Assembly: GCA_003249955.1 (NCBI GenBank)
Contig: QKHS01000095.1
Location: forward strand, 11,299-75,298
Source of the DNA: Bacteroidales bacterium
GTDB lineage: Bacteria > Bacteroidota > Bacteroidia > Bacteroidales > ML635J-15
DNA length: 64,000 nt
Reading direction: 5' to 3'
The notes beneath the pieces are model-generated. The model was given only the letters and a program-made list of their open reading frames with translations, did no database searches and was not told the origin of the DNA. The position numbers and the translations under genes were made by a program. Of the stretch, positions 44,601 to 64,000 are shown in pieces (within the stretch, counting starts at the first letter, position 1; every line of letters begins with the position of its first letter).

Positions 44601-47600
44601 GTTGCGACAGTCTGGTTACTCTGAACTTAACAATAAATAATTCTGCTACAGGAACAGATGTTATTACTGCATGTGATTCTTACACATGGATTGACGGAAT
44701 TACTTACACTGCAAGCAATAACACCGCTACTTTCAATATTGCAGGTGGTGCGGCTAACGGTTGCGACAGTCTGGTTACTCTTAACTTAACAATAAATAAT
44801 TCTGCTACAGGAACAGATGTTATTACTGCATGTGATTCTTACACATGGATTGACGGGATTACTTACACGGCCAGCAATAATACCGCTACTTTCAATATTG
44901 CTGGTGGAGCAGCAAATGGTTGCGACAGTCTGGTTACTCTTAACTTAACTATTAATAATTCTGCTACAGGAACTGACGTTATTACTGCATGTGATTCTTA
45001 CACATGGATTGACGGGGTTACTTACACCGCAAGTAATAATACTGCTACTTTCAATGTTGCCGGTGGGGCAGCAAATGGTTGCGACAGTCTGGTTACGCTA
45101 AATTTAACAATAAATAATTCTACTACAGGTACAGACCTTATTACTGCTTGTAATTCTTACACATGGATTGACGGTATTATTTACACGGCTAGCAATAATA
45201 CAGCTACTTTCAATATTGCCGGTGGGGCAGCAAATGGTTGCGACAGTCTGGTTACTCTGAACTTAACAATAAATAATTCTGCTACAGGAACAGATGTTAT
45301 TACCGCATGTGATTCTTACACATGGATTGACGGGATTACTTACACGGCCAGTAATAATACTGCTACTTTCAATATTGTTGGCGGAGCGGCAAATGGTTGC
45401 GACAGTCTGGTTACCCTGAACTTAACAATAAATAATTCTGCTACAGGAACAGATGTTATTACTGCATGTGATTCTTCTTACACATGGATTGACGGGGTTG
45501 CTTACACTGCAAGCAATAACACCGCTACTTTCAATATCGCTGGTGGAGCTGCAAATGGTTGCGATAGTCTGGTTACTTTGAATTTAACAATTAATCACTC
45601 AGCTACAGGTACAGACGTTATTACTGCCTGTGATTCTTACACATGGATTGACGGTATTACTTACACGGCAAGCAATAATACAGCTACTTTCAATATTGCC
45701 GGTGGGGCAGCAAATGGTTGCGACAGTCTGGTTACGCTGAATTTAACAATAAATAATTCTACTACAGGTACAGACGTTATTACTGCTTGTAATTCTTACA
45801 CATGGATTGACGGTATTATTTACACGGCTAGCAATAATACCGCTATATTCAATATTGCTGGTGGTGCGGCTAACGGTTGCGATAGCCTGGTTACACTGAA
45901 CCTAACTATTAATCACTCAGCTACAGGTACAGATGTAATTACTGCATGTGATTCCTACACATGGATTGATGGAATTACTTACACGGCAAGTAATAATACA
46001 GCTACTTTCAATATTGCAGGTGGAGCAGCTAACGGTTGTGACAGTCTGATTACTCTAAACTTAACTATTAATCACTCAGCTACAGGTACAGATGTAATTA
46101 CTGCATGTGATTCTTATACATGGATTGATGGAATTACTTACACTGCCAGCAATAACACTGCTACTTTCAATATTGTTGGTGGAGCAGCAAATGGTTGCGA
46201 CAGTCTGGTTACACTAAACTTAACTATTAATCACTCTGCTACAGGTACTGACGTTATTTCTGCTTGTGATTCTTACACATGGATTGACGGTATTACTTAC
46301 ACTTCAAGCAACAACACTGCTACTTTCAATATTGCCGGTGGAGCAGCAAATGGTTGCGACAGTCTGGTTACTCTGAACTTAACAATAAATCACTCTACTA
46401 CAGGAACCGATGTTATTTCTGCATGCGATTCTTACACATGGGTTGACGGTATCACTTACACTGCAAGCAACAACACGTCTACTTTCAATATTGTTGGTGG
46501 AGCAGCAAATGGTTGCGACAGTCTGGTTACACTAAACTTAACTATTAATCACTCTGCTACAGGTACTGACGCTATTACTGCATGCGATTCTTACACATGG
46601 ATCGACGGAATTACTTACACGGCAAGCAACAACACTGCTACTTTCAATATTGCTGGTGGTGCGGCTAACGGTTGTGACAGTCTGGTTACTCTGAACTTAA
46701 CAATAAATCACTCTGCTACAGGAACCGATGTTATTTCTGCATGTGATTCTTATACATGGATTGACGGAATTACTTACACTGCCAGCAATAACACTGCTAC
46801 TTTCAATATTGCTGGTGGAGCAGCTAACGGTTGCGATAGTCTGGTTACGCTGAATTTAACAATCAATCACTCAACAACCGGAACTGACGTAATTACAGCT
46901 TGTGATTCTTACACCTGGATTGACGGAATTACTTACACTGCAAGCAACAACACTGCTACTTTCAATATTGCCGGTGGTGCGGCTAACGGTTGCGATAGTC
47001 TGGTTACCCTAAACTTAACAATAAATAATTCTGCTACAGGAACCGATGTTATTTCTACTTGTGATTCTTACACATGGATCGACGGAATTACTTACACGGC
47101 CAACAACAACACGGCTACTTTCAATATTGCTGGTGGAGCAGCAAATGGTTGTGACAGTCTGGTTACTCTGAACTTAACAATAAATCACTCTGCTACAGGA
47201 ACCGATGTTATTTCTGCATGTGATTCTTACACATGGATTGACGGTATTACTTACACAGAAAGTAATAACACTGCTACTTTCAATATTGCAGGTGGGGCAG
47301 CTAACGGTTGTGATAGTCTGGTTACTCTTGATTTAACAATTGAAACCATAGACCTTAGCGTAACAACATCTGATAATATAATTGTTTCAAATCAGGATGG
47401 AGCTTCATATCAATGGATTGATTGCAGTACAAATCTGCCAATTGAAAATGAGACAAACCAAAGTTTTACCGCTACTGTAAACGGCGACTATGCAGTAATT
47501 GTCTCTTTGGGAACATGTAGCGACACATCTGCTTGTGAAAGCATTATTGTGGAAAATATAGAACCTGTTTCAGATATTCAGTTTAATATTTATCCGAACC

Positions 47601-47803
47601 CGAACAACGGGCAGTTTAAGCTTGATCTGAGTTCTGAAGCCACAATAGAAATTTCTGATGCCCTTGGAAGAATTATTTACTCAGAACAGCATCAATCAGG
47701 CACATCATTAATAAATCTTTACAATGAAGAAGCTTCTGTTTACTATCTAAGAGTTATTTCTAACGGGAAAATCAGTGTTCAGAAAGTTGTGGTGCACAAA
47801 TAA
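41654..47803 (+). CDS. Giant (2049 aa) T9SS cargo adhesin: a Pmp-like right-handed beta-helix, then a 53-aa two-cysteine tandem repeat array, then a type A C-terminal sorting domain
   Basis: Signal peptide. About 14 GGG(I/L/V)(Y/C/F) turns alternating with N-rich rungs (aa 1-830). 19-20 units like SATGTDVITACDSYTWIDGITYTASNNTATFNIAGGAANGCDSLVTLNLTINN. C-terminal FNIYPNPNNGQFKLDL...YYLRVISNGK. Confidence 0.9.
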   Translation: MKTIFTCLLFIIVAINVNASIIYVNHAATGANNGTSWANAYTDLEYAVIFAMSGDEIWVAKGTYYTSSTNDRSSSFALGNGVKLYGNFAGTETDINQRVGLIPDAAGTDRVNETILNGDIGVANDSTDNAYHIMYIVGNTLPVIIDGVKITGGNASIDPGKGIGSGIYIQSTNDVFLKNVIIANNTGTAGTYGKGGGLYVQTTTSFILENSAVIRNRIIDDPLVSTNAVYLGGGIYVSSPLTQISNCFIENNKIQSGRSDSEGGGLYIENNLNLDITNTSIINNSVISTSGSAKYLKGGGIACYGNATSVSNLNLNNISDNTITTSKGEARGGGSYLSSDTLKISDCYSNSNRINTSYTATVYNTSGCGMYAEVEKSTNITNSEFNMNSIYAGSASGGGLCLISSSADTASVQECQFSNNVLQSVGFSGSYLYGGGLFLGLKVRLNDCQINNNNANISATATSAYASKASNAYGGGVYSSNFAEFNNCSINSNTLHSDMTYNVDNNMTFPSISSRASGGGIYSSSKLILQNSSIDNNEAMSSIDSYYYWSSYFKGYCFGGGVCNDYTTSGQKSLISNCTINNNTSNSYSSYAYSEMKGGGIYSRNMDILNCEISNNDTYVDLSVAGGLNQGGGIYHEGTGKLYHNTISDNDASAGTGYISGGYTSYTYGGGLYSKSADPVSNCLIHNNSVTGRNKAYGGGIYNESSSVFSNLTVAKNTSYSSYTTPDNKGSGVYTNNSSAKFRNSIIYFNDLLSYYDQTTSSEVKNSVIQLYPNGATNFNIDPQFTDVAANDFHVSASSIAINRGDDSFIPSDITTDLDGNLRISGSSVDIGAYELDLCKSYTTIYDEICFGTPYIFNGQNLTASGIYKDTLTNVALCDSIITLNFTVNNPAYSTDVISACETYTWIDGLTYTTDNNTATFTYPGATADGCDSIVTLNLTINHATTGTDFITSCGSYTWIDEITYTASNNTATFNIAGGAANGCDSLVTLNLTINNSATGTDVITACDSYTWIDGITYTASNNTATFNIAGGAANGCDSLVTLNLTINNSATGTDVITACDSYTWIDGITYTASNNTATFNIAGGAANGCDSLVTLNLTINNSATGTDVITACDSYTWIDGVTYTASNNTATFNVAGGAANGCDSLVTLNLTINNSTTGTDLITACNSYTWIDGIIYTASNNTATFNIAGGAANGCDSLVTLNLTINNSATGTDVITACDSYTWIDGITYTASNNTATFNIVGGAANGCDSLVTLNLTINNSATGTDVITACDSSYTWIDGVAYTASNNTATFNIAGGAANGCDSLVTLNLTINHSATGTDVITACDSYTWIDGITYTASNNTATFNIAGGAANGCDSLVTLNLTINNSTTGTDVITACNSYTWIDGIIYTASNNTAIFNIAGGAANGCDSLVTLNLTINHSATGTDVITACDSYTWIDGITYTASNNTATFNIAGGAANGCDSLITLNLTINHSATGTDVITACDSYTWIDGITYTASNNTATFNIVGGAANGCDSLVTLNLTINHSATGTDVISACDSYTWIDGITYTSSNNTATFNIAGGAANGCDSLVTLNLTINHSTTGTDVISACDSYTWVDGITYTASNNTSTFNIVGGAANGCDSLVTLNLTINHSATGTDAITACDSYTWIDGITYTASNNTATFNIAGGAANGCDSLVTLNLTINHSATGTDVISACDSYTWIDGITYTASNNTATFNIAGGAANGCDSLVTLNLTINHSTTGTDVITACDSYTWIDGITYTASNNTATFNIAGGAANGCDSLVTLNLTINNSATGTDVISTCDSYTWIDGITYTANNNTATFNIAGGAANGCDSLVTLNLTINHSATGTDVISACDSYTWIDGITYTESNNTATFNIAGGAANGCDSLVTLDLTIETIDLSVTTSDNIIVSNQDGASYQWIDCSTNLPIENETNQSFTATVNGDYAVIVSLGTCSDTSACESIIVENIEPVSDIQFNIYPNPNNGQFKLDLSSEATIEISDALGRIIYSEQHQSGTSLINLYNEEASVYYLRVISNGKISVQKVVVHK
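44324..47347 (+). repeat. Nineteen contiguous in-frame 159-bp tandem repeats (one unit is 162 bp), preceded by one degenerate unit at about 44164-44323
   Basis: Unit boundaries were derived from the reading frame (unit n starts at 44324+159(n-2) up to unit 9). I counted units from the recurring TLNLTIN motif. Confidence 0.9.
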
Positions 47804-51693: not shown

Positions 51694-53280
51694 TCATTCT
51701 GACAAGCTGTCTTTTTTTAATTGATGATTAATTGCTTTTCGCATTGTTTTAAATTTTGGATGTAACGCTTTTGGCCGAAGCGAACTTTCTTTTAAGCTGA
51801 AAACTAGCAGACAAAACAGTCCCAATAAACACAACCATCCGTATATCTCTTTCAGGCTTACCATAATTGACTGCTGTTGCAGAACTCCCAAGAGTTCCCC
51901 CTGAGGAATTTGTTTTATTATCGGATTTACATGGTCGAGATTTGCACTCAGCAACATAAAGTTCTTCTTCATAATTAACTTAAATGCCCGGCTCAATATT
52001 GTTGTCCCCAATAAAGCTCCAATACAGGCACTTGCAAATGCCTGTATTGTAAGCGACTGAAAAAAGTTTTGAAACGGTACGGGCACAAGTGCTGTTATAA
52101 AAGTTATCGCAATAATTATATAGCCCATTCCTCTTAAAAACAAAGGTAATATCAGCATTTCCTTTGGCAAATTAAAGTCAATAATGAAATACATTACCAG
52201 CAAATACCCTATGATTAATAAAAATCCGATTAATGTCATTGTCTTATATTTCCACTTTCGCAGAGCAAAAACATGGTATGTAAACAATGTACCTGCAACA
52301 AACCCCAAAATAACTACCCAATTAAGCGAAATCGCATTTAGTGCATCATAACCCAGAACACCTTCTGTGTAGATATGTTCAAATAAATGTGCCGGACTAA
52401 GCAACAGGTCAACTAAAATGTAAAGTATAAATGTAAGCCATACATTTCGGTAACTCCATGTTTTCAATTCAATAAAAGGATGCCGGATAAATGAAGCACG
52501 CCAAAGATTAAGAGCTAAACTAACAACCCCGAATACCACGCCAAGCCGTATATATCCTGATTGAAACCAATCCAGATATTCACCGTAATTAAGCACAAAA
52601 ATAATGCTTAGTATTGTTGCCGACCATAAAAACAGTCCCATCCAGTCAATTCCATAGAGCGGGAGCTTCTTCATGGAGCGATAATTGCGAAAAGTTACAA
52701 TAGTTACTGACATTACTAACAATAAAAGTCCGACAACCAACCAATGCATGTATTTCCATGTGTGCAGGTATGAAACATAAACAGTTGTCAAACCGGAAAG
52801 CAGTATAGATGTCTGCACTAAAAAATAAATATAAACAAACCATACCGACATATCTCGCTTTGGAGTTATCCATAACATAATTGTTGTATTACAAGCAAAA
52901 GTTCCCCACATTCTTAAAAATCCGGCTACAAAAGACACCGCAACCAAAAGCGGTAAACTATGTGTATGCATACTTATCAGGTTACAGGCTATAAGTCCCA
53001 ATGCAGTAACGAGCAAACTTGTTTTTATCGGAAACCGGAATTTAAGCCGGTACATAAAAGTAAAGGTAAGAGCCAAACCTACTAATGATGCATATCCCGC
53101 CATCATTATGTCTTCTTGCATCAATGCCATCGAACCCGTCATTTCACTGACAGATGCCAGATATATACCACCTGACAACTGATAGACAATAACAAATACG
53201 ACAAGTATCCAAGGCTTTATCTTTTCGGGAATAAAGTTCCTGATATCAGGAATAAAAAAAGTTTTATTTTCGTGTTGCAT
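51694..53280 (-). CDS. Divergent MFS-type efflux permease (in the EmrB position of the operon)
   Basis: 528 aa with about 14 hydrophobic segments. It is the last gene of a TolC - membrane-fusion - permease operon. I did not see the canonical MFS motif A. Confidence 0.65.
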   Translation of the reverse strand: MQHENKTFFIPDIRNFIPEKIKPWILVVFVIVYQLSGGIYLASVSEMTGSMALMQEDIMMAGYASLVGLALTFTFMYRLKFRFPIKTSLLVTALGLIACNLISMHTHSLPLLVAVSFVAGFLRMWGTFACNTTIMLWITPKRDMSVWFVYIYFLVQTSILLSGLTTVYVSYLHTWKYMHWLVVGLLLLVMSVTIVTFRNYRSMKKLPLYGIDWMGLFLWSATILSIIFVLNYGEYLDWFQSGYIRLGVVFGVVSLALNLWRASFIRHPFIELKTWSYRNVWLTFILYILVDLLLSPAHLFEHIYTEGVLGYDALNAISLNWVVILGFVAGTLFTYHVFALRKWKYKTMTLIGFLLIIGYLLVMYFIIDFNLPKEMLILPLFLRGMGYIIIAITFITALVPVPFQNFFQSLTIQAFASACIGALLGTTILSRAFKLIMKKNFMLLSANLDHVNPIIKQIPQGELLGVLQQQSIMVSLKEIYGWLCLLGLFCLLVFSLKESSLRPKALHPKFKTMRKAINHQLKKDSLSE

Positions 53281-53285
53281 AAGGT

Positions 53286-54320
53286 TTAATACTTTACTTC
53301 ACATTCCACATTCATACCAGTGCGTAAAAGCGATAAATCTTTTGCCTCGTTAGTCTCAGAAAATTCTATACGAACCGGAATGCGTTGTGCTACTTTAACA
53401 AAATTACCTGCAGAATTATCCTGAGGAAAAAGAGAAAAACTTGCTCCCGTAGCTCTCGAGATAGACTTTACTTTTCCTGTAAATATTTTGTCGGGCAATG
53501 CATCTACTTTAATTTCGACGATTTGTCCTTCTTTTATGTTATCTATCTGCGTTTCTTTAAAATTGGCAATTATCCACTTTTCTGTTTCATTTACCAGATC
53601 CAGTACGTTTTGTCCGGGTTGAACAAGTTGTCCCTCTTCAATAACTTTACGACCTGTGAAGCCATCGCATGGCGCAATAATTACAGTATAGGACAAATTA
53701 AGTTTTGCAAGTTCCAACGCAGCTTCTGCTAATTTTATCAGGGCATCATTCTGATCCAGACGCAAAGTTTGCTCATCTTTTACCAACGAAGTTGTATTAC
53801 GCATTCCCAGCATTTGTTCGTAACGGGCCCTGGCAGCATCATAATTAGTCTTAACATCATCAAACTGCTGTTTGGTAACAGCTTCCTGTTCCAGCAAATT
53901 TTTATATCTATTATATTCTTTTTCTGCATTTTCCATTAATATGCGACTTTCTTCAATTCCGGATTCAGAAACTACAATATTGCTCTGGGTCGTAAGAATT
54001 GTAGTTCCCATAGCTTTTTTCCCGGCTATGGCGTTTTGGTAATCTGCTTCAGCCTGTGCCAGGCGATATCGGTATTCCATATCTTCAATAACCAAAAGAG
54101 TATCTCCTTTGCTAACACTCTGATATTCATCAAAATATATCTTTTTAATATAACCCTGAACTCTTGTATTTATAGGAACTATCTGCTGTTTTACCTGTGC
54201 ATTATCTGTAAACTCTACATTCCCAAAATGAACGAAACGACTCCAGACCCAAATTATGCAAGCTACCAACAATCCTCCGACTACTATATTGTACACCAAT
54301 TTCATTTTCTTACTTTTCAT
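53286..54320 (-). CDS. HlyD/EmrA-family membrane fusion protein
   Basis: One N-terminal transmembrane segment, a biotinyl-lipoyl-like GYIKKIYFDEYQSVSKGDTLLVIED, a coiled-coil region and a beta-barrel tail. Confidence 0.85.
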   Translation of the reverse strand: MKSKKMKLVYNIVVGGLLVACIIWVWSRFVHFGNVEFTDNAQVKQQIVPINTRVQGYIKKIYFDEYQSVSKGDTLLVIEDMEYRYRLAQAEADYQNAIAGKKAMGTTILTTQSNIVVSESGIEESRILMENAEKEYNRYKNLLEQEAVTKQQFDDVKTNYDAARARYEQMLGMRNTTSLVKDEQTLRLDQNDALIKLAEAALELAKLNLSYTVIIAPCDGFTGRKVIEEGQLVQPGQNVLDLVNETEKWIIANFKETQIDNIKEGQIVEIKVDALPDKIFTGKVKSISRATGASFSLFPQDNSAGNFVKVAQRIPVRIEFSETNEAKDLSLLRTGMNVECEVKY

Positions 54321-54362
54321 ATTATTTCAATTTGATTATTCCTGACTTATAAATTTCTATAA

Positions 54363-55682
54363 CTACAACTTACCTGTTTCCCAAAGTAATTTTAAATGGC
54401 TGTAAACAACATTAAGATTTGCGTTTACTACCTGCAATTCTGCATTAAGCTTCATATTACTTGCATCTAACATTTCTGTGATTAATGCCAGATCGTTCAG
54501 GTAACGGTTATTAATTACAGCGTAGTTTTCCTTAGCAAGCTGAAAACTCTTTTCGTAAGCATATAGCTTGTCAAATGATTCCAGATATTTTGTGTATGCA
54601 GAATTAATTGCGATCTGAGCATGTTCCGATTCTGCATCATAGATGTAATTTGCAATATTCCTGCGACTTTTTGCAAGACGCACATCTGAGGAAGACGAAT
54701 AAAGAGAGGCGACATTGTATTTTATTCCGACTCCTACATACCAGTAATTAAGATTTTTGTTAATAGGAGGCACTTCAAAAGTTATCGGACCATTCAGATT
54801 TTCAGCTCCAATAATCGCCACCGCTGGATAGAAATTTGCTTTTACCAATCTTATCTCAGTTTCAGCAATATCCTTTTGTAAACCTGCTATTTGCAAATTA
54901 AATCTGTTTTTTTCGGCTATCTGCATCAATTCACTCATGGGTTGTTGTAGCAGATTAATGTTTTGAATAGTTGTATCGGGAAGAACTATTGTTTCTGCCG
55001 GTAAGCCAAGAGTAACAACCAGACTTTGATTTATTATACTGATATTATTTTCTATCTCAATAAGAGAAAGTTTAAGGTTTTGCAACATCAGCTCATAACG
55101 GGTAAGGTCATTGCTGAGTACCATTCCTTCTTTCTGTTTAGCCAGAACCTGTTTAATAATCACTTCGGTTTGTTCAATATTCTTCAGAAAAACCTTACGT
55201 TGATTATAAAGATTGTATAAATCCAGATACTGTCCTGCAACCAAAAACCTCATGTCAGAAATATTATTATTGTGTGCAAGCTGAGCAACCTGAGCCTCCA
55301 GATTTGCTTTTTCAATAGCGTTTGTAACTGCTCCTCCGGCAAAGACAAGATATGAAGCTTCAACAGAAAAATTATTACCCAGATGAGGTATCGGGGCATT
55401 AAAGCTGTTCGAAAAATTACGATCAAGAATAGCAGCATCTCCCATATATAATACTGAAACTCCTACGTCAATTGTTGGTAACTGAGAATTTTTTACAACT
55501 AAAACAGATTGTTGTGCTGTCTCAGAAACAGATTGGGATATTTTTAACTGCGTACTATTACGTTCTACTAATAAAAAAGCAGAATCTAATGAGATTACAA
55601 TTCCGTTATTAATTTGTGAAAATATGTTTTGCGCAACCAGTATTGATAGCATTAACAAATAAGTTCTTATTTTCATGTTCAT
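54363..55682 (-). CDS. TolC-family outer-membrane efflux protein
   Basis: Signal peptide and two internally repeated helical/beta halves, with a length and pattern typical of TolC/OprM-like proteins. The start could be either ATG, at 55682 or 55676. Confidence 0.8.
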   Translation of the reverse strand: MNMKIRTYLLMLSILVAQNIFSQINNGIVISLDSAFLLVERNSTQLKISQSVSETAQQSVLVVKNSQLPTIDVGVSVLYMGDAAILDRNFSNSFNAPIPHLGNNFSVEASYLVFAGGAVTNAIEKANLEAQVAQLAHNNNISDMRFLVAGQYLDLYNLYNQRKVFLKNIEQTEVIIKQVLAKQKEGMVLSNDLTRYELMLQNLKLSLIEIENNISIINQSLVVTLGLPAETIVLPDTTIQNINLLQQPMSELMQIAEKNRFNLQIAGLQKDIAETEIRLVKANFYPAVAIIGAENLNGPITFEVPPINKNLNYWYVGVGIKYNVASLYSSSSDVRLAKSRRNIANYIYDAESEHAQIAINSAYTKYLESFDKLYAYEKSFQLAKENYAVINNRYLNDLALITEMLDASNMKLNAELQVVNANLNVVYSHLKLLWETGKL

Positions 55683-55828: not shown

Positions 55829-56677
55829 ATGAATCCGCAAAGCAGTAGTTTTACTAAGCCCGATTTATCGGAAGAAGACATGACAATGTCTCTGAATAAC
55901 AACTCATTACCCTTATCCGGCAAGTTAACAAAATCAGGACGCTGTATAGTTTGTTATTGTTTAAAAGGATGGGCAGATATGGAAGTTAACTTAACGAAAC
56001 ATCGCTTTGTTGAATCGGAAATAATGGTACTCTTCCCGACTCAAATTGTGCAACAAAATGAGGTAAGCAGTGATTTCTCTGTAATGTATTTTTCAATTTC
56101 GCCAACAATGCTGCTTGAAGTTACATTTCGGTTTCCCCCTGATTTTATAAGTTTCTTGCGACAACATTTCTATTATAAAGTCAGCTCCGATTTACTACAG
56201 GAAGAACAAGTCCGCTTTGCTGTAATTCAGCAAAAGTTTTATGATAAAGATAATTATTGCCGCAGAGAGATATTGGTAAATTTTATACGCATATTCTTTT
56301 TGGAATTATATGATAAAATTCGCAGAGACGAATTAACCAACCCCGGGTCAAGACATAACAGAAGATCTGAAATTTTTGAAGAATTTATTAATTTGGTAAT
56401 GCGTAACTATAAATCAAACCGGGATGTTTGTTTCTATGCAAATACTTTATGCATTTCTCCCAAATACCTGTCAGTGATTACTATGGAGCTAAGCGGAAAC
56501 GGAGCCAAAGAATGGATTGACGACTATGTAATTTTAGAATTGAAAATCCGTTTAAAATCGACACAGGACAGTTTGCAGAAAATTGCAGACGAATTAAATT
56601 TTGCAGATCAGGCATTTTTATCAAAATACTTCAAGCTTCGCACCGGTCTGTCTCCAAGAGATTTTAGAAAAATGTAG
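55829..56677 (+). CDS. AraC-family transcriptional regulator, divergent from the efflux operon
   Basis: C-terminal double HTH: ANTLCISPKYLSVITMELSG...IADELNFADQAFLSKYFKLRTGLSPRDFR. Confidence 0.85.
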   Translation: MNPQSSSFTKPDLSEEDMTMSLNNNSLPLSGKLTKSGRCIVCYCLKGWADMEVNLTKHRFVESEIMVLFPTQIVQQNEVSSDFSVMYFSISPTMLLEVTFRFPPDFISFLRQHFYYKVSSDLLQEEQVRFAVIQQKFYDKDNYCRREILVNFIRIFFLELYDKIRRDELTNPGSRHNRRSEIFEEFINLVMRNYKSNRDVCFYANTLCISPKYLSVITMELSGNGAKEWIDDYVILELKIRLKSTQDSLQKIADELNFADQAFLSKYFKLRTGLSPRDFRKM

Positions 56678-57636: not shown

Positions 57637-58311
57637 TCAGAACTTAAACTTATATCCTGCCTGAAAAACAAAATCAGTAAGCGGATTTTTTGTAAAATAT
57701 TCTTTTTGCACCATATATCCTAAATCGATGGAATGCATTTTATTAAAAGAATATCCTATACCGGCACAGATTCTGATTTTATCCAAAGGTTTATACCCGT
57801 TGTAAAAAACCGGAAAATATGCTTCTGCAGACAAATATGGTTCTGTTTTTCCAAGCTTGTACTTAATACTGTACTTAGGCCTTACGGCAGAACGTGTGCT
57901 ACCGTCTGAGTCAAAAACAAATATATTCTTTTGCTGAATCTGAAATCTTAACCTTAAAGACATATCAAAATTACCAACCCCGGTTTTATAGGAATAATCA
58001 GCATAAATTTTACTTCCCGGAATATATTGATTGTTAAGTTGCAATTGATAAAAGTATCTGTAAAACAGGGAAACCTGTGACTTCTTATCAAATTTATAGT
58101 TCACCCCTATTTCGTTTATTATGCTTCTTAATTCGGAAACATTCTCATTAAATCTGGAATCGTGTGCAAATTCCACCGAGAAAGCCTGAGTAATCTGTTT
58201 TTCGACCCCGAATCCTGCCCATACTCCTGCATCATTTACCTGCGAACAGACATTCGTGAATAAACTGGCACAAAATAACAGCGGAAGAAATATTTTTACT
58301 GCTTTATTCAT
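57637..58311 (-). CDS. DUF2490-like outer-membrane beta-barrel protein
   Basis: Signal peptide, alternating beta-strand pattern (WAGFGVEKQI, VEFAHDSRF, IGVNYKF...) and a terminal aromatic beta-signal, GYKFKF. Confidence 0.7.
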   Translation of the reverse strand: MNKAVKIFLPLLFCASLFTNVCSQVNDAGVWAGFGVEKQITQAFSVEFAHDSRFNENVSELRSIINEIGVNYKFDKKSQVSLFYRYFYQLQLNNQYIPGSKIYADYSYKTGVGNFDMSLRLRFQIQQKNIFVFDSDGSTRSAVRPKYSIKYKLGKTEPYLSAEAYFPVFYNGYKPLDKIRICAGIGYSFNKMHSIDLGYMVQKEYFTKNPLTDFVFQAGYKFKF

Positions 58312-59086
58312 AAAAATATATCTTTATTATTGCGGCATCTTTCAGCAAATTTATCTGTCCGATTACTATTCTGTGAATATTAAAACCGGTACGCTTCTTA
58401 AGATCTTCTATCAGCTCTTCTCTCCTTTCCGGAAGTATCAGGTCAAGGTTATCATATAGTACCTTCCGTGAAGATTCTCTTTTCAGGATTAACCTGCTGT
58501 CGAGAATAAAAATAAAAAAAATCAGAATCGAATTTATTATAATTAATTCGTAAAATTCGAGCCGGATAGCACTGATAAGACCGATTGCAATAAATATGAA
58601 CAAATAAGTCATATCTTTCATTGAAATGCCTGAGGTACGGTATCTCAACATCGAAAAAACTGCAAAAAGGCCGAAAGCGGCTCCCATGGATATTTTTACT
58701 TCATTAAGTACATAAGTAAGCAGGAATATCACCACATTAAACAAAATAAAAGTAAAAATATATCCCAGCTTTTTATTCCTCGGGTAATAAATAAGAAATA
58801 TTATCAAAAGAACAGAGCTTACATCTATCAACAAATTGATAAAAAAGTCTGCGTTTAACTTTATAACATCTTTTTCTTTGTCTTTCTTTTTCTTCGACTC
58901 CTTTACTTCCTGTGTTTTGGTATTAACAAGAGAATCGGCTCCGGTTGTTTCTTCCTGAGAAGACTGTTCCCAGACTTCACCTGTAGTTATTGTTTCTGTA
59001 TTTTCCTGTGCTGAAACCAAAACAGGCTGAAACATTGCGAAACCTGTGACAAATGTCAAAATCATTAAAATCCTGTATATTTTCAT
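58304..59086 (-). CDS. DUF4956-like polytopic membrane protein
   Basis: Signal-like N-terminus, a charged linker (SKKKKDKEKD), four to five transmembrane segments, and a soluble tail of about 65 aa (VLYDNLDLILPERREELIEDLKKRTGFNIHRIVIG). The family call is from memory of its typical pairing with VTC-domain genes. Confidence 0.65.
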   Translation of the reverse strand: MKIYRILMILTFVTGFAMFQPVLVSAQENTETITTGEVWEQSSQEETTGADSLVNTKTQEVKESKKKKDKEKDVIKLNADFFINLLIDVSSVLLIIFLIYYPRNKKLGYIFTFILFNVVIFLLTYVLNEVKISMGAAFGLFAVFSMLRYRTSGISMKDMTYLFIFIAIGLISAIRLEFYELIIINSILIFFIFILDSRLILKRESSRKVLYDNLDLILPERREELIEDLKKRTGFNIHRIVIGQINLLKDAAIIKIYFYE

Positions 59087-59118
59087 ATTCCTGAAATTTA
59101 TTTTCCTGTTTTTATTAG

Positions 59119-59895
59119 TTAATTTTCTATTCCGGGTTTAATCACATCTTCCCCGGAACAAAGCTTATTTACAAACCTTATTTTTTCTTTAATATTATTT
59201 TTTTTCACCTCCGGGTATAAACTTGCTATTCCAAGGCAATATTTACTAAGAGAACTTTCAAAGATTCTTTTTTCTCTTAAAATTTCCCTTAAAGGAGATC
59301 TGGCCGATTTATCCTGTTTAAGTTCTAAAATACATAACCCGGAATAACCGGCAGATGAAGTTTCGTTTTTAAAGTTAAGTCCTGTATCAATGGTAAGTCT
59401 CTCTGTAAAAGCTTTGTTTACCAGAGTAATGCGCGAGTAGGCCACATCGACAACAGGAATTATTTCTTTATATTTATCTGTGCATGATTTTAAAAAATTT
59501 TTGTAGCTTTTCTCTTTAAGAGAATCAGAATCCGGAATCGGAATTCTGTTTTTTGAAGTCTTTGAATGATTATTTTTAACTTTTATTTCCAGAAAACTCT
59601 GTCCTGTCTCCATATAAGTACGTAATCTTATTTTAAGCCTGGAAAAACGTCCACACTGGTGCTGATAATAAAAATAAAAATATGGGGTATCATAATACAG
59701 GGTTCTATAATTGCTCATTCTTACCCCGTTAATTTCAAGTATAAAATAATCATCTTCAAGCTTTAACAAAAGATCAGACAAATCAGATACTTTTATTAAA
59801 AACTTGGTATCCACCCTGTTCAGCAATTTAACAGAATCAATCTGGGAGAGCTGAACCGGTTCAAAGTCATTCAATATGTCGTTAAAGCTTTTCAA
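59119..59895 (-). CDS. VTC-domain (polyphosphate-polymerase-like, triphosphate-tunnel fold) protein
   Basis: No signal peptide. Alternating charged beta-strand motifs typical of tunnel enzymes: RVDTKFLI, RLKIRLRTY, FLEIKVKN, ILELKQDK, then SKYCLG. The start codon is TTG at 59895. Confidence 0.7.
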   Translation of the reverse strand: MKSFNDILNDFEPVQLSQIDSVKLLNRVDTKFLIKVSDLSDLLLKLEDDYFILEINGVRMSNYRTLYYDTPYFYFYYQHQCGRFSRLKIRLRTYMETGQSFLEIKVKNNHSKTSKNRIPIPDSDSLKEKSYKNFLKSCTDKYKEIIPVVDVAYSRITLVNKAFTERLTIDTGLNFKNETSSAGYSGLCILELKQDKSARSPLREILREKRIFESSLSKYCLGIASLYPEVKKNNIKEKIRFVNKLCSGEDVIKPGIEN

Positions 59896-59899
59896 AAGA

Positions 59900-60385
59900 C
59901 TAATAACTTGTGTATGAGTATTTTTTTACCCACCTTAACTCTCCCTTAGAGTTGTATTCTTTGGCATCTTTTTTCAGCCCTTTATTATCGGTTGAATATA
60001 CCTGTTTACTGATTATATTACCCTCGCTGTCGGTTTTTATTTCTTCTGTTTTCTCCCCTTTTGCATCATATTTATAAACCGTCTTTTCTGTCTTTCCCGA
60101 CTTTTTCTCATAATCGGTTTTTTCGGTAACATTACCAAAATTGTCATACTTAAAAGTTTCTTTTGATTTTACTTCGCCCGACTTGTTAAACTCCTGTTTA
60201 AGAACAGTATTGCCGTTTTTATCGTATTCCTCATACGATTCCTTATAAGTGACAGTTACGCCATCTTTCTGTTCTGTTTTTTCCGTAGTTCTCGACTTTA
60301 TTTTATTCGATTTTAACTCCGTTTTACTTTGAGAGAACCCGATAACCGGAACAATCATTAACAAGAAAAATATTATCTTTTTCAT
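59900..60385 (-). CDS. Small exported Lys/Glu/Thr-rich protein with short YD-like repeats
   Basis: Signal peptide MKKIIFFLLMIVPVIGFSQ. Repeated xYxYDxxGN-type units: YEEYDKNGN, FKYDNFGN, YKYDAKGE and VYSTDNKG. Confidence 0.6.
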   Translation of the reverse strand: MKKIIFFLLMIVPVIGFSQSKTELKSNKIKSRTTEKTEQKDGVTVTYKESYEEYDKNGNTVLKQEFNKSGEVKSKETFKYDNFGNVTEKTDYEKKSGKTEKTVYKYDAKGEKTEEIKTDSEGNIISKQVYSTDNKGLKKDAKEYNSKGELRWVKKYSYTSY

Positions 60386-60389
60386 AATC

Positions 60390-60806
60390 CTAATTATAAA
60401 TTATTATTTGCGGAACTGCCAAAACCTGATCACTTTCGGTAATTTCGACTTCTTTTACTATTGCAATATTTCCATCCGGAGAGGTAAGTGTCGAATCTTC
60501 GGAAAAGACATAAATTGTGTATTTACCGGGTCTCAGATAATTAAACCTGTAATATCCCTGATAATCTGTTTCCACCTTATCGTCATATCCTACATTTTCA
60601 CCATAAACGATATAAACATCTTCCTTTGCTCCGGCATACTCACTTATAAGTGATGTGTAAGTACTGTTATAATTACGTACCCAAACAGACCCTGTTATCG
60701 TTGCGTTACCGCCTTCGCCCGGAGACTTTTCACAGGAAGTAAAAACCAAAGCTGCAAATACGGTAATAGCAACTGCCACCTGACTAACAAAACTTCGTTT
60801 CAACAT
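60390..60806 (-). CDS. Carboxypeptidase-regulatory-like domain lipoprotein
   Basis: Lipobox VFTSCEK. A single Ig-like domain carries YQGYYRFNYLRPGKYTIYV, typical of CarboxypepD_reg. Confidence 0.65.
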   Translation of the reverse strand: MLKRSFVSQVAVAITVFAALVFTSCEKSPGEGGNATITGSVWVRNYNSTYTSLISEYAGAKEDVYIVYGENVGYDDKVETDYQGYYRFNYLRPGKYTIYVFSEDSTLTSPDGNIAIVKEVEITESDQVLAVPQIIIYN

Positions 60807-60850: not shown

Positions 60851-63142
60851 TTATAATTTAACAAACACAGAAGATCTCACATTACACTCCGAAACCACAC
60901 TTACATAGTAAACAGAGGGTTTCCACGTTTTTATATCTATGGCTATTGAGAAATAATCATTCCCTATCGGACCGGAACTGTACATAAGTTCACCTGCGGA
61001 ATTATAAATTAAAACGTTTGTAATGCTTTCTAAAGATGCAAGTTCCAGATATACCTCATCCGCAGACGGTACCGGATAAACCAGAATAGTATTGTTTATA
61101 TTTTCCGGCTGAGAATTAAATGCTCCGGGTGTCGGCACCAGCACAGAGCTTTGATTATACCCGTCAGGGAATCTTCCGACACTGCGATTATCTGAGCATA
61201 TCCCGGGCAAAAAGCAATCAACCTGAATATCAGAATCTGACATTAATTCTACAACATCTTCGTTTTGTTCATTTAACTCTGTTGAATATACGTCGGCCTG
61301 ACCAGGATAAGCAAGTAAAAATCCCCTGCCGGCTATTGTAGTATCCACAATATCAAAACCAGTCCCATGACAACGGATATTAATATTTTTCAAAAATAAT
61401 TTTTCTTCTCCCGGATTAAAAATTTCTATAGCTTCAATATCACTCAACCCGGCAACATCTCCAAAATCATAATTGTTGTAAATAATTTCATTTATTACAA
61501 TATCCCCTTGCTCTGTTCTTACAGGCACATTAAAAAACTCATATGCTGCACGTTCCGGCAAAAATGATCCTGACGAATCGTTTTCGGCCCAGAAGTAATA
61601 CTCAAAATTTTTACCTGCCGGAGTAATTTCTGCATAAAATAATGAGTCTCCGGCACACACATCCCCGTTTGTTCCGTCATCATACATAACAGAAGCTGTA
61701 AAAACCCCGTTACTCTTATCCCTGTGATACACCCATACTTTTTGGGCTCCGGAAACTTTAACTGTAATCCCCAGATTATGGTTACGTATTGCAATAGTGG
61801 CTGAAAGCTCAGGTTCTCCAAATACCGGATATCCTGAAATGCCCGGGTACGTTTCGATATAAGCAGCACGGGATTCCATTAAATCCTGAATTCCGGGAAA
61901 TTGCTCTGTTGATAAGCCGGTAGTAGAATACAGATTTTCTTCAAAATCTTCATTTGAATAAAATTTATTGGTATCTGCTTCTACATAATCCGCAATCAAA
62001 TCATGAAGTAGTTCCCCTGTCTCAAGATAGCTTCCGTTATTTATATTTTCGTTTATAATTGTCCGCAAATGAGCAAGATACATTTTTCTGTATGTAGAAT
62101 TCAAAAACAGATTTTTCATCAAAGGCCGCGGCGAAATCGAAAATGTCATATGCTGTAACGGGTTAAGAAGCGGCAATTTTGTCATTGTAACTCCCTGAAA
62201 GTTTGTTGCCCCGTCCGAATGTCTGAAACTACCAAACGACATGTTTAAATCCCACGGAATTGTATTAAACTGCAGATTCTCATCCTGATAAACATAAAAA
62301 TTCTGAGCATACGCGATATAACTATCCAGATTTAGTATGGCATAATTAAATGCATGCATCCACAAAGCTCTGTCAACGTTTAATACTGTTGTAATGTTTG
62401 CCGTATCGTTATTAAGAACGTTAATAAAATTGAAAAGCTCTTCCCAGCCATATTTCGATTCAAGGCTATAATAAGGCATATATCCCGATGAATCTTCGCC
62501 ATGAGTATAGGCAAGATTTGCATTCTGCCCGAATGGATATGACAGAGTCTCCGGATTTCCTTTAAAAAACGGGTTGTTTTTATCTCCGAAATGTTTATCA
62601 GCAAAGCACTCGTCCACCGCCTCTACATTGGTGTAAAGCCCTATAAGAGTATCATTAATATAAACATTGGCAAAATTTGCTTCTGATGCAGGCATATACT
62701 TACGTGCAATGCCATAAGCCAGAACTTCGCGCACAAAAGAAGGATCGTAAATTACATTGGAAAGCTTTAATTTTTTGTAACCCTGATGATTCTGATTTAC
62801 ATATGTGTAATCAAGATTAATGCTAAACGGATTCTTGACCTCATCTGCATTCCATGAACTGAATCCTTTGTATCTTATCCCGCATTTTTTATAAAGATCC
62901 CCGTCTATTTCCACATCTGCTTTAATTCTGGAATAGGTATCACCAGCTAAAAACAGTGAATCAAGAATATATTTCCAGTTATCGTCTTCAAAATAAATTT
63001 TTATTTCTCTAACCGAACCGCTGTCATAAAACCCTTCCTGGGAAAATGCGCTTACTGCACATATTAAAACAAGAGTAAGAGTAAAATAAAATCTTTTAAA
63101 CGATCTCAAAGACTTTAAATATTTTAATATTAAATGAGGCAT
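60851..63142 (-). CDS. CotH-family kinase-like protein with a lamin-tail-like domain and a T9SS type A C-terminal sorting domain
   Basis: Signal peptide. CotH-like N-terminal two thirds (IRYKGFSSWNADEVKNPFSINLDY...KKLKLSNVIYDPSFVREVLAY...). LTD-like IVINEIIYNN...IEIFNPGE at about 61160-61510. C-terminal LVYPVPSADEVYLEL...VYYVSVV. Confidence 0.75.
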   Translation of the reverse strand: MPHLILKYLKSLRSFKRFYFTLTLVLICAVSAFSQEGFYDSGSVREIKIYFEDDNWKYILDSLFLAGDTYSRIKADVEIDGDLYKKCGIRYKGFSSWNADEVKNPFSINLDYTYVNQNHQGYKKLKLSNVIYDPSFVREVLAYGIARKYMPASEANFANVYINDTLIGLYTNVEAVDECFADKHFGDKNNPFFKGNPETLSYPFGQNANLAYTHGEDSSGYMPYYSLESKYGWEELFNFINVLNNDTANITTVLNVDRALWMHAFNYAILNLDSYIAYAQNFYVYQDENLQFNTIPWDLNMSFGSFRHSDGATNFQGVTMTKLPLLNPLQHMTFSISPRPLMKNLFLNSTYRKMYLAHLRTIINENINNGSYLETGELLHDLIADYVEADTNKFYSNEDFEENLYSTTGLSTEQFPGIQDLMESRAAYIETYPGISGYPVFGEPELSATIAIRNHNLGITVKVSGAQKVWVYHRDKSNGVFTASVMYDDGTNGDVCAGDSLFYAEITPAGKNFEYYFWAENDSSGSFLPERAAYEFFNVPVRTEQGDIVINEIIYNNYDFGDVAGLSDIEAIEIFNPGEEKLFLKNINIRCHGTGFDIVDTTIAGRGFLLAYPGQADVYSTELNEQNEDVVELMSDSDIQVDCFLPGICSDNRSVGRFPDGYNQSSVLVPTPGAFNSQPENINNTILVYPVPSADEVYLELASLESITNVLIYNSAGELMYSSGPIGNDYFSIAIDIKTWKPSVYYVSVVSECNVRSSVFVKL

Positions 63143-64000
63143 TTATTTCTTCTGTATTTTTGCTGAAAACTCTTTACCCTTATCCTCAAATTTTATTAAA
63201 TATACACCTTGTGGCAAAGAATGCAAATCAATTACATAAGTAGCAGAAGTTGTTTTATCTGTTACATTTTTACCGGTAATGTCAAAAATATTGTATGAAT
63301 ATCCGTCACTCATATTTGTAACTGAAATAAAATCAAAACACGGATTAGGATATACATTTGCTGAAGGCAGGTAATAATGACTTGCTACTCCGGCATTCAG
63401 ATCCATCTTTGAAACTCCGTTTCCGGTAGATATCCATGCATCTCCGTCGTTATCTATTTTTATCTTTTTCACCAACACATCTACCAGTCCGTCATCAACG
63501 CTGTAAATAGTCCAGTTTGTTCCGTTATAGACGGTTACACTGCCTTCGGCCAGATAATCGGCATATTCACATGCCCATATATTACCATTATCATCAATTG
63601 CAATATCTTTTATAAAATTATTGTAAAGCCCGTCTTCCGTAGTATAATTTTCCACCCAGACATCTGATGAATTAAAAACAGAAATTCCCGAATAAGTTCC
63701 TATAAGTTTGTTGCCACCGGCATCAATTGCAATGCTGCAAACATAATCTCCGAGTAAACCGTTGCCGGTATTATAGACAACTGTAAATGCTGATCCGTTA
63801 TATTTTACAACCCCGTTTGCCCATGTGCCTATCCAGATATTACCGGAATTGTCAGCGCATAAATAGCTGATTAAATCATCTGATGGCAATCCGTCCTCAG
63901 AAGTATAATTTGTAAAATCTGTACCGTTAAATTTTGTCAGTCCGCTGTTGCTGGCAATCCAGACATTTCCCGAGTAATCAGGGGTAATAAAGACAATAGA
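63143..64000 (-). CDS. Beta-propeller repeat (two-component-regulator-propeller-like) T9SS cargo protein, truncated at its N-terminal end by the window edge
   Basis: The track ORF begins at TTG 63889. My manual translation stays open to position 64000 and continues the repeat (SGNVWIASNSGLTKFNGTDFTNYTSEDGLPSDD). The C-terminal NVYPNPCFDFISV...VYLIKF is a type A sorting domain. Its stop codon directly abuts the CotH start codon. Confidence 0.75.
   Translation of the reverse strand, partial: SIVFITPDYSGNVWIASNSGLTKFNGTDFTNYTSEDGLPSDDLISYLCADNSGNIWIGTWANGVVKYNGSAFTVVYNTGNGLLGDYVCSIAIDAGGNKLIGTYSGISVFNSSDVWVENYTTEDGLYNNFIKDIAIDDNGNIWACEYADYLAEGSVTVYNGTNWTIYSVDDGLVDVLVKKIKIDNDGDAWISTGNGVSKMDLNAGVASHYYLPSANVYPNPCFDFISVTNMSDGYSYNIFDITGKNVTDKTTSATYVIDLHSLPQGVYLIKFEDKGKEFSAKIQKK

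Follow-up and report, generated by a model that had tools for sequence, protein, structure and literature searches.

A Vtc4-like enzyme and a DUF4956 membrane protein at the core of a conserved bacterial operon: a possible polyphosphate synthesis and export module

INTRODUCTION

Polyphosphate (polyP) in bacteria is attributed to PPK1 and PPK2. Here we examine a different candidate: two adjacent genes, one for a protein with a VTC domain and one for a DUF4956 membrane protein, in a 64 000-nucleotide stretch of a Bacteroidales bacterium genome (contig QKHS01000095.1, positions 11 299 to 75 298; this whole stretch is called the window below). An earlier note, made from the letters of the window alone, had suggested that the pair could be a split bacterial analogue of the eukaryotic VTC polyphosphate synthase/translocase. 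The products are named by NCBI as ‘polyphosphate polymerase domain-containing protein’ and ‘DUF4956 domain-containing protein’, and BT3498–BT3499 of Bacteroides thetaiotaomicron are annotated as DUF4956 and DUF2490. Recent reviews class VTC as ‘eukaryote-type’ and PPK as ‘prokaryote-type’ (PMC12526157).

The locus in the window shares with the eukaryotic VTC complex (yeast Vtc4/Vtc3/Vtc1) the tunnel fold of the enzyme, the nine catalytic ligands and a genetic tie between the enzyme and a membrane protein. A further likeness may lie in the conserved basic residues on the predicted cytoplasmic side of DUF4956; the Vtc channel has a basic mouth on that side too. It differs from the eukaryotic complex in that the bacterial enzyme lacks the SPX domain and the fused DUF202 domain, in that enzyme and membrane protein are separate polypeptides, and in that DUF4956 (five helices and a β-α-β-β domain) is unrelated to Vtc1. 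The destination of the bacterial product would be the periplasm or cell surface rather than the vacuole, with extra outer-membrane and secreted partners. PPK1 and PPK2 have in common with the VTC enzyme the ATP-dependent polyP synthesis that we propose for it, but they have an unrelated fold, are cytoplasmic or peripheral, and have no dedicated membrane or outer-membrane partner.

The three gene families have been described together in Gram-positive bacteria. Accessory genes in the order cotH–‘PPP’ (VTC)–DUF4956 (–DUF4832) lie beside Gram-positive pel operons (Whitfield et al., bioRxiv 768473/PMC7112168). SIR_1594–1592 of Streptococcus intermedius have been described, on the basis of AlphaFold, as including a Vtc4-like enzyme with the catalytic residues and a membrane protein with multiple transmembrane (TM) segments and an ACT-like domain (bioRxiv 2024.04.20.589940). 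In the NELoc-2 locus of C. perfringens, VTC-domain genes are each followed by a gene for a cytoplasmic-membrane protein annotated as ‘tubulin/FtsZ, GTPase’, with CotH nearby. The window has the same three protein families in one operon, but adds a DUF2490 barrel, a CotH protein with a putative type IX secretion system (T9SS) tail, a T9SS propeller and two small exported proteins; its cluster was not seen beside pel genes, and the pel papers give DUF4956 no role. Besides Streptococcus, the module is present in Deinococcus and Pseudoalteromonas.

Two further groups of systems bear on the locus. In the established secretion systems for Pel, alginate, cellulose and poly-N-acetylglucosamine, the polymerase faces the cytoplasm, a conduit lies in the inner membrane, accessory proteins are periplasmic or lipoproteins, and the outer membrane has a barrel dedicated to the system. 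The cluster resembles this layout; the differences are that the polymer in the window would be inorganic polyP, that no component is homologous, and that no cyclic di-GMP receptor was identified. The OprP/OprO porins belong to the Pfam family (PF07396) that follows DUF4956 in a second lineage described below, in the slot that DUF2490 holds in the window; Porin_O_P is, however, absent from the window, and the known members serve uptake under phosphate starvation. As a trio, the genes have been reported before. We did not find the export model or the porin link in earlier work: the searched literature gave no translocase role for DUF4956, no partnership with DUF2490 or an OprO/P-type porin, and no report of the fusions described below.

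RESULTS AND DISCUSSION

VTC and DUF4956 are the invariant core of a conserved operon

The following genes are considered first:

59119..59895, minus strand: VTC-domain protein, 258 aa, TTG start; Pfam PF09359
58304..59086, minus strand: DUF4956 inner-membrane protein, 260 aa; Pfam PF16316
57637..58311, minus strand: DUF2490 predicted outer-membrane β-barrel, 224 aa, with a signal peptide and the C-terminus ...YKFKF; PF10677, E=3e-26

The earlier note had located the first two genes correctly, 32 nt apart, and had left their strand unstated. The VTC protein matches PF09359 over the whole of the model (positions 1–235 of 235) with E=9.5e-30 and 104.3 bits (cut-off 23). DUF4956 matches PF16316 with E=1.4e-48 and 165.3 bits (cut-off 30.6); the public gene call starts it at Met8, giving a protein of 253 aa. 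One search returned >5700 relatives of the VTC protein, and the DUF4956 family comprises 1848 clusters at 50% identity. Given these E-values and the thousands of homologues, the sequence features of both genes lie far beyond chance.

To compare gene neighbourhoods, we used two sets of loci: 80 anchored on VTC in genomes that are almost all labelled Bacteroidota, and 80 anchored on DUF4956 in metagenomes and seeded from a Pseudoalteromonas protein (the second lineage). DUF4956 adjoins VTC in 78 of the 80 VTC-anchored loci. In 76 it lies immediately downstream in the same orientation, and in 2 it is convergent on the opposite strand; the remaining two comprise one contig end and one true absence. 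In the second lineage, VTC lies directly upstream in every DUF4956-anchored locus with room for it (57/57). Beyond the two sets, a Deinococcus plasmid carries CotH–VTC–DUF4956 with one stop abutting the next start, and Nonomuraea gerenzanensis (L083:4805-8452) has the reversed order, DUF4956 then VTC, 4 nt apart. Because of the Nonomuraea arrangement, the adjacency can be said to survive a swap in gene order. VTC and DUF4956 are the invariant core of a conserved operon, and DUF4956 almost never occurs without the VTC enzyme.

Some of these loci have features of their own. In Nonomuraea the pair is preceded, in the same orientation, by a two-component system (a histidine kinase with an OmpR-type response regulator), and its surroundings showed no CotH; the kinase and regulator gave only generic OmpR/heavy-metal-type family matches, all below cut-offs. 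In the second lineage (L084–L163; for example L106:7644-8852 and L099:1458-2660) the order is lipoprotein-CotH, VTC, DUF4956 and an OprO/OprP-family porin. Marine metagenome records (TARA and others) are the source of many of these loci, and the closest are 97–100% identical to the Pseudoalteromonas plasmid protein. On that plasmid, NZ_CP142031.1 of Pseudoalteromonas sp. CuT4-3 (L081:6189-6882), only the C-terminal ∼70 residues of VTC are left, overlapping an open reading frame annotated ‘lamin tail domain’. The sequence of the CuT4-3 cluster looks partly deleted; CotH and VTC are intact in the near-identical metagenome loci L084–L087.

The VTC protein is closest to the catalytic domain of Vtc4

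The AlphaFold2 (AF2) model of the VTC protein has a pLDDT of 92.6. With this model, the best Foldseek matches in the PDB were to the Vtc4 catalytic domain (3g3r, 7ytj, 8i6v and 3g3q; E 2.6e-12 to 1e-10, TMq 0.61–0.68), both alone (3G3Q/3G3R) and within the VTC cryo-EM complexes (7YTJ, 8I6V). Generic triphosphate tunnel metalloenzyme (TTM) hydrolases and ‘adenylate cyclase-like’ CYTH proteins were weaker (E 1e-7 to 1e-10, TMq 0.4–0.49). The protein consists of the VTC domain alone; in Pfam searches neither SPX nor the fused C-terminal three-helix DUF202 membrane domain was found. The earlier note had read a triphosphate-tunnel enzyme from the strands RLKIRLRTY, FLEIKVKN and ILELKQDK, which are present at residues 86–94, 101–108 and 189–196, and the fold comparison bears that reading out.

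To identify the tunnel residues, we compared the family with Vtc4 directly. The family profile had given a weak but correct alignment to Vtc4 in the PDB. A reference sequence, Vtc4 195–482, was confirmed against PDB chain 8i6v_E and then aligned to the family profile with hhalign, giving 202 columns at 23% identity (E 4.4e-4, probability 33%). The residues map as follows (window = Vtc4):

Triphosphate ligands: K31=K200, R90=R264, R92=R266, K105=K281, Y153=Y359, R155=R361, S217=S457, K218=K458
Mn2+ ligand: E191=E426
Further pairs: R27=R196, K115=K294, R166=R373, K193=K428

In Vtc4, the triphosphate is bound by K200, R264, R266, K281, R361, K458, S457 and Y359 and Mn2+ by E426; mutating any of the nine lowers polyP in yeast in vivo, and K458 is the sole ligand replaced in the inactive paralogues Vtc2/Vtc3 (bioRxiv 2023.01.27.525886). 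The window protein keeps nine of the nine, including the Vtc4-specific lysine (K218=K458). Among 137 distinct bacterial sequences from all the collected loci, the mapped basic, Glu and Ser equivalents are 99–100% conserved and Y153 is Tyr or Phe. Hydrolytic CYTH/TTM triphosphatases such as YgiF typically carry a metal-binding ExExK motif on the first strand. That motif is absent here: the strand reads R27-V-D29-T-K31, against R196-Q-T-T-K200 in Vtc4, and the near-invariant D29, at the position of Vtc4 Thr198, is a family-specific difference. Sequence and model together make a stand-alone Vtc4-type tunnel enzyme, and a putative active polyphosphate polymerase, the best reading of the 258-aa protein.

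The same comparison bears on whether the tunnel might host other chemistry, i.e. a triphosphatase, nucleotide-polyphosphate or cyclase-like activity, with DUF4956 transporting or sensing either the product or a cation that serves as cofactor. Functions vary widely within the tunnel superfamily, and the scatter of the Foldseek matches illustrates this; D29 would fit such a departure; and the alignment to the single Vtc4 sequence is modest. We nevertheless think this very improbable, given that all nine ligands are kept, that the fold is nearer to Vtc4 than to any hydrolase, and that the phosphate-selective porin partner described below points to an inorganic phosphate species.

Other searches were less informative. 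Single-sequence PDB searches with the VTC, DUF4956, CotH, DUF2490 and 161-aa proteins returned nothing useful, a profile of the C-terminal half of VTC had no match in the PDB, and a protein search seeded with a Vtc4 fragment returned short exon-like fragments only.

DUF4956 has an invariant basic turn at its predicted cytoplasmic face

Three parts of DUF4956 are referred to below:

58598..58690, minus strand: invariant block, residues 133–163, SMGAAFGLFAVFSMLRYRTxGISMKDMTYLF (x is s in the window)
58307..58498, minus strand: C-terminal soluble domain, residues 197–260, 64 aa, β-α-β-β in the AF2 model
58868..58897, minus strand: SKKKKDKEKD, residues 64–73, inside a disordered linker (residues 27–78, 58853-59008)

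The AF2 model of DUF4956 (mean pLDDT 70, core 75–85) has a signal-peptide-like helix at residues 2–17, a disordered stretch at 23–74 and TM helices at 79–103, 107–129, 134–152, 156–173 and 178–196. The earlier note had proposed four to five TM segments and a soluble domain of about 65 aa; the model has five and a domain of 64 aa. From the loop charges, the topology is probably five-helix, N-out/C-in: the loops YYPRNKK and RYRTsGISMKD are assigned as cytoplasmic and NEVKIS and RLEFYE as facing outward. The stretch DSRLILKRESSRK follows the last helix, on the predicted cytoplasmic side. We place the C-terminal domain in the cytoplasm both because of the loop charges and because fusion proteins (see below) keep a signal-peptide-like segment after it. 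Its residues Y211, D228, R232, G234 and D250 are near-universal among 149 sequences from several phyla, and it gave weak ACT/KH-like Foldseek matches (E>0.3).

The most conserved part of the protein is the invariant block of ∼30 residues, S133–F163, which runs from the Gly/Ala/Phe-rich TM3 through a tight turn on the cytoplasmic side into the beginning of TM4. In the same 149 sequences, Arg or Lys is found at 148 and at 150 in 100% and at 157 (Lys or Arg) in 97%. The region of R148, R150 and K157 is a candidate pore mouth or docking site, judged by this conservation.

By sequence and model comparison, DUF4956 is not homologous to the eukaryotic Vtc1/DUF202 channel. A reading of the protein as MgtC-like, from its five helices and ACT domain, was dropped, as there was no match at all.

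The earlier note had also drawn attention to the lysine-rich exported linker. SKKKKDKEKD is indeed present, after a signal peptide with an ...A|Q cleavage-type motif, and the signal peptide, an acidic stretch and the poly-Lys run are kept among the nearest Bacteroidales relatives. Export of so long an N-terminal tail would require a signal peptide, and in this respect the linker fits the N-out topology. However, it is found in only ∼22 of 75 Bacteroidota homologues, the rest having short N-termini of 15–28 aa or acidic ones of ∼50 aa, and it is absent outside the Bacteroidota, where the Pseudoalteromonas, Deinococcus and Nonomuraea proteins begin directly at the first helix. Because of this distribution, the sequence comparison makes the linker a clade-specific decoration that cannot belong to the core mechanism.

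Two unrelated outer-membrane barrels and CotH accompany the pair

The gene after DUF4956 belongs to one of two unrelated barrel families. In the Bacteroidota it encodes DUF2490, a putative porin family (TC 1.B.81; PMC4827864), directly downstream in 50 of the 69 loci that extend far enough; several others have it at another place in the cluster. In the second lineage it encodes a Porin_O_P (PF07396) protein, directly downstream in 61 of 64 loci, with DUF2490 in one further locus; each of the eight porins checked exceeded the Pfam cut-off (E 5e-19 to 3e-70). The Pseudoalteromonas megaplasmid has the decayed VTC remnant, DUF4956 and then, 1 nt on, a Porin_O_P porin (E=2.4e-47). OprP/OprO of Pseudomonas aeruginosa are phosphate- and pyrophosphate-specific porins (PMC9769906). 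A phosphate-selective porin family in this slot is the strongest indication, at the level of sequence families, that an inorganic phosphate species crosses the envelope.

DUF4956 is also found fused to these partners. DUF4956::DUF2490 fusions are P0448 (L164:5001-6383; 460 aa), P0387 and P0511 (512 and 520 aa) and P0426; the 90%-identity cluster of P0448 has 36 members, all equally long, that occur on numerous NCBI, ENA and Logan contigs. A single DUF4956::CotH fusion was found, P0444 (L166:6001-8016; 671 aa). In the fusion contexts VTC leads into the fusion gene: Cthe_2159–VTC–fusion–LytS/LytTR, and TPR/YaiO–VTC–fusion–CotH–CotH–CotH. Each fusion has a signal-peptide-like or lipobox hydrophobic segment after the DUF4956 C-terminal domain, and the domain would therefore be cytoplasmic and the fused partner exported.

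CotH lies upstream in 35 of 42 second-lineage loci, compared with 17 of 64 Bacteroidota loci. Nearly all the complete second-lineage cotH genes encode lipoprotein signal peptides (L-x-[AG]-C-G-G), and the streptococcal CotH has been described as secreted (bioRxiv 2024.04.20.589940). In the window, sub-threshold lamin-tail and type IX sorting-domain matches suggest a secreted or surface protein. Taken together, CotH appears from its predicted signals to be extracytoplasmic in each case examined.

The porins raise the question of whether the flow might be reversed, with external pyrophosphate or polyP entering through the porin or barrel and DUF4956 to be consumed by a polyphosphatase, or by the polymerase running in reverse and phosphorylating ADP. 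The phosphate-selective porin family would suit such scavenging, as would the number of loci from marine metagenome assemblies (TARA and others) and the lamin-tail domains that accompany some CotH proteins. We regard it as quite improbable. To bring a polyanion in against the inside-negative potential, the cell would have to supply energy, and no source of it is encoded; the enzyme retains K218=K458 and has R27-x-D29-x-K31 in place of the hydrolytic ExExK; and the Gram-positive trio sits in pel biosynthesis operons, not in uptake loci. A Pho-box scan upstream of the second-lineage operons gave a few 11/14 matches and no consistent enrichment, although imprecise start sites make this a weak test.

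A model for coupled polyP synthesis and export

Across the window and 160 related loci, the gene content fits synthase-dependent trans-envelope secretion, with a cytoplasmic polymerase, an inner-membrane part and an outer-membrane barrel; this fit is one of genes alone. With moderate confidence, we propose that the VTC/DUF4956 pair could be the core of an envelope-spanning bacterial polyP synthase/export module. In the model, the VTC enzyme would dock on the basic cytoplasmic face of a DUF4956 oligomer, made up of the R148-Y-R150-T turn, K157 and the C-terminal domain, and would polymerise the γ-phosphate of ATP. The growing polyanion would be threaded through DUF4956 into the periplasm, driven by polymerisation and by the inside-negative membrane potential; we propose these drives because the operon has no gene for an ATPase or another energising partner. 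DUF2490 in the window, or the OprO/OprP-type porin in the second lineage, would then pass the chain or its product over the outer membrane, and CotH and the other secreted proteins would act on the product outside the cytoplasm. Docking, translocation, direction and the role of CotH are what we infer. Export is favoured over import because there is no energising component and the inside-negative potential favours extrusion of a polyanion, because the enzyme keeps the polymerase-specific lysine, and because in Gram-positive bacteria the trio is part of operons for exopolysaccharide (pel) biosynthesis.

By analogy, this supports the proposal of a split VTC analogue in the functional sense, with a non-homologous membrane part. 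The Vtc4-like enzyme, the near-universal adjacency and the barrel in the operon uphold it; neither kinship of the membrane part to Vtc1/DUF202 nor a fusion of the two genes was found.

Several observations weigh against the export model. No VTC::DUF4956 fusion was present in the 163 loci or among the top 150 DUF4956 family representatives. DUF4956 has no sequence relative in the PDB. Its model gave no Foldseek match with an E-value under 0.01, and VTC chains were not matched at all; when 36 members were scanned against Pfam at relaxed thresholds, there was no DUF202 match even at E≤5 and no link to MgtC or a transporter family. The strictly conserved basic residues lie at the cytoplasmic boundary and not inside the membrane, where the conserved TM3 is Gly/Ala/Phe-rich. 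The C-terminal domain, being weakly ACT-like in the model, would equally fit a ligand-sensing regulator. OprO/OprP porins are classically uptake channels, and the direction of flow does not follow from the porin. The searched literature held no experiment on a bacterial VTC or DUF4956 protein, and the authors of the S. intermedius study suggest that polyP may stay cytoplasmic, there being no Vtc partner (bioRxiv 2024.04.20.589940).

That last suggestion can be put in a general form: polyP would be a membrane-anchored cytoplasmic store, DUF4956 an anchor or an ACT-like ligand-sensing regulator, and the barrel or porin an importer of phosphate. Beyond the streptococcal proposal of retention without a Vtc1-type partner, it would accommodate the ACT-like Foldseek matches, the lack of basic residues in the DUF4956 membrane core, and the induction of the OprO/OprP uptake porins by phosphate limitation (PMC9769906). 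It leaves unexplained why CotH with secretion signals and other secreted proteins accompany the pair across differing envelopes and signals, why DUF4956 is fused to an outer-membrane barrel or to CotH, and why a mere anchor should have 30 contiguous invariant residues; nor was there a consistent Pho box upstream of the second-lineage operons, with the weakness of that test noted above. On balance we judge cytoplasmic storage unlikely.

If the export model is true, then synthesis became coupled to translocation on at least two separate occasions, with membrane parts that are not related, and the operon offers a genetic handle on placing polyP in the periplasm, at the surface or in the biofilm matrix. 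It would also suggest a candidate phosphoryl donor for secreted CotH kinases. A more specific version, which we find doubtful, is a dedicated polyP secretion machine, built from a Vtc4-type polymerase, a DUF4956 conduit and, where there are two membranes, a phosphate-selective outer-membrane barrel, that works across differing envelopes and feeds a phosphoanhydride donor to extracytoplasmic CotH kinases deprived of ATP, the whole acting as a phosphorylation or matrix-modification system. Independently of the model, there is a large bacterial family with the full Vtc4 catalytic set that is tied to membrane, outer-membrane and secretion-signal-bearing partners.

The remaining genes of the cluster and of the window

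Upstream of VTC, the window cluster continues with:

59900..60385, minus strand: small secreted Lys-rich repeat protein, 161 aa, signal peptide, weak YD/RHS-like repeats (weak Pfam/NCBIfam matches)
60390..60806, minus strand: small predicted lipoprotein, 138 aa, ...FTSC lipobox; sub-threshold Pfam Ig-like and carboxypeptidase-regulatory-like matches
60851..63142, minus strand: CotH kinase-family protein, 763 aa; Pfam CotH, E=9.7e-40
63143..64000, minus strand: β-propeller protein (Reg_prop repeats) with a T9SS sorting domain (Pfam/NCBIfam matches)

The seven genes are tightly packed, with intergenic gaps of 0, 44, 4, 4, 32 and −8 nt: the propeller stop abuts the CotH start with no gap, and the start of the DUF2490 gene overlaps the DUF4956 stop by 8 nt. 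Within the cluster there were 34 promoter-like sites against a shuffle expectation of 25.5, for a σ70 consensus that may not apply to this host, and two terminator-like sites against 4.0; both counts are near what shuffling gives. The matches of the window CotH to the lamin-tail (LTD) and Por_Secre_tail families are weak and below the gathering cut-offs. The propeller frame is open to position 64000, the end of the window, so only its C-terminal part is visible; homologues in related loci are ∼400 aa or longer, and a T9SS propeller upstream of CotH recurs in eight loci. In many Bacteroidota loci, genes for the 161-aa and 138-aa exported proteins again lie between CotH and VTC; they do not do so in the second lineage. 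The 161-aa protein is 20% Lys in the window, with a family median of 17% Lys and a net charge of +5. A periplasmic polyanion-binding role for the two small proteins would be a guess.

Elsewhere in the window, a tripartite efflux-like operon (51694-55682, minus strand) encodes an outer-membrane efflux protein (OEP) and a membrane-fusion protein of the HlyD type, together with a polytopic membrane protein of 528 aa that has no Pfam match at E≤1e-5; a divergent AraC-family regulator lies beside it (55829-56677, plus strand). There are also two very large predicted T9SS substrates, one of 2049 aa with bpX5-like repeats and a Por_Secre_tail (41654-47803, plus strand) and one of 1304 aa with SprB and PKD repeats and a CHU_C sorting domain (20065-23979, minus strand). 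Because of these two, together with the proteins of the cluster, the genome appears to be rich in T9SS cargo.

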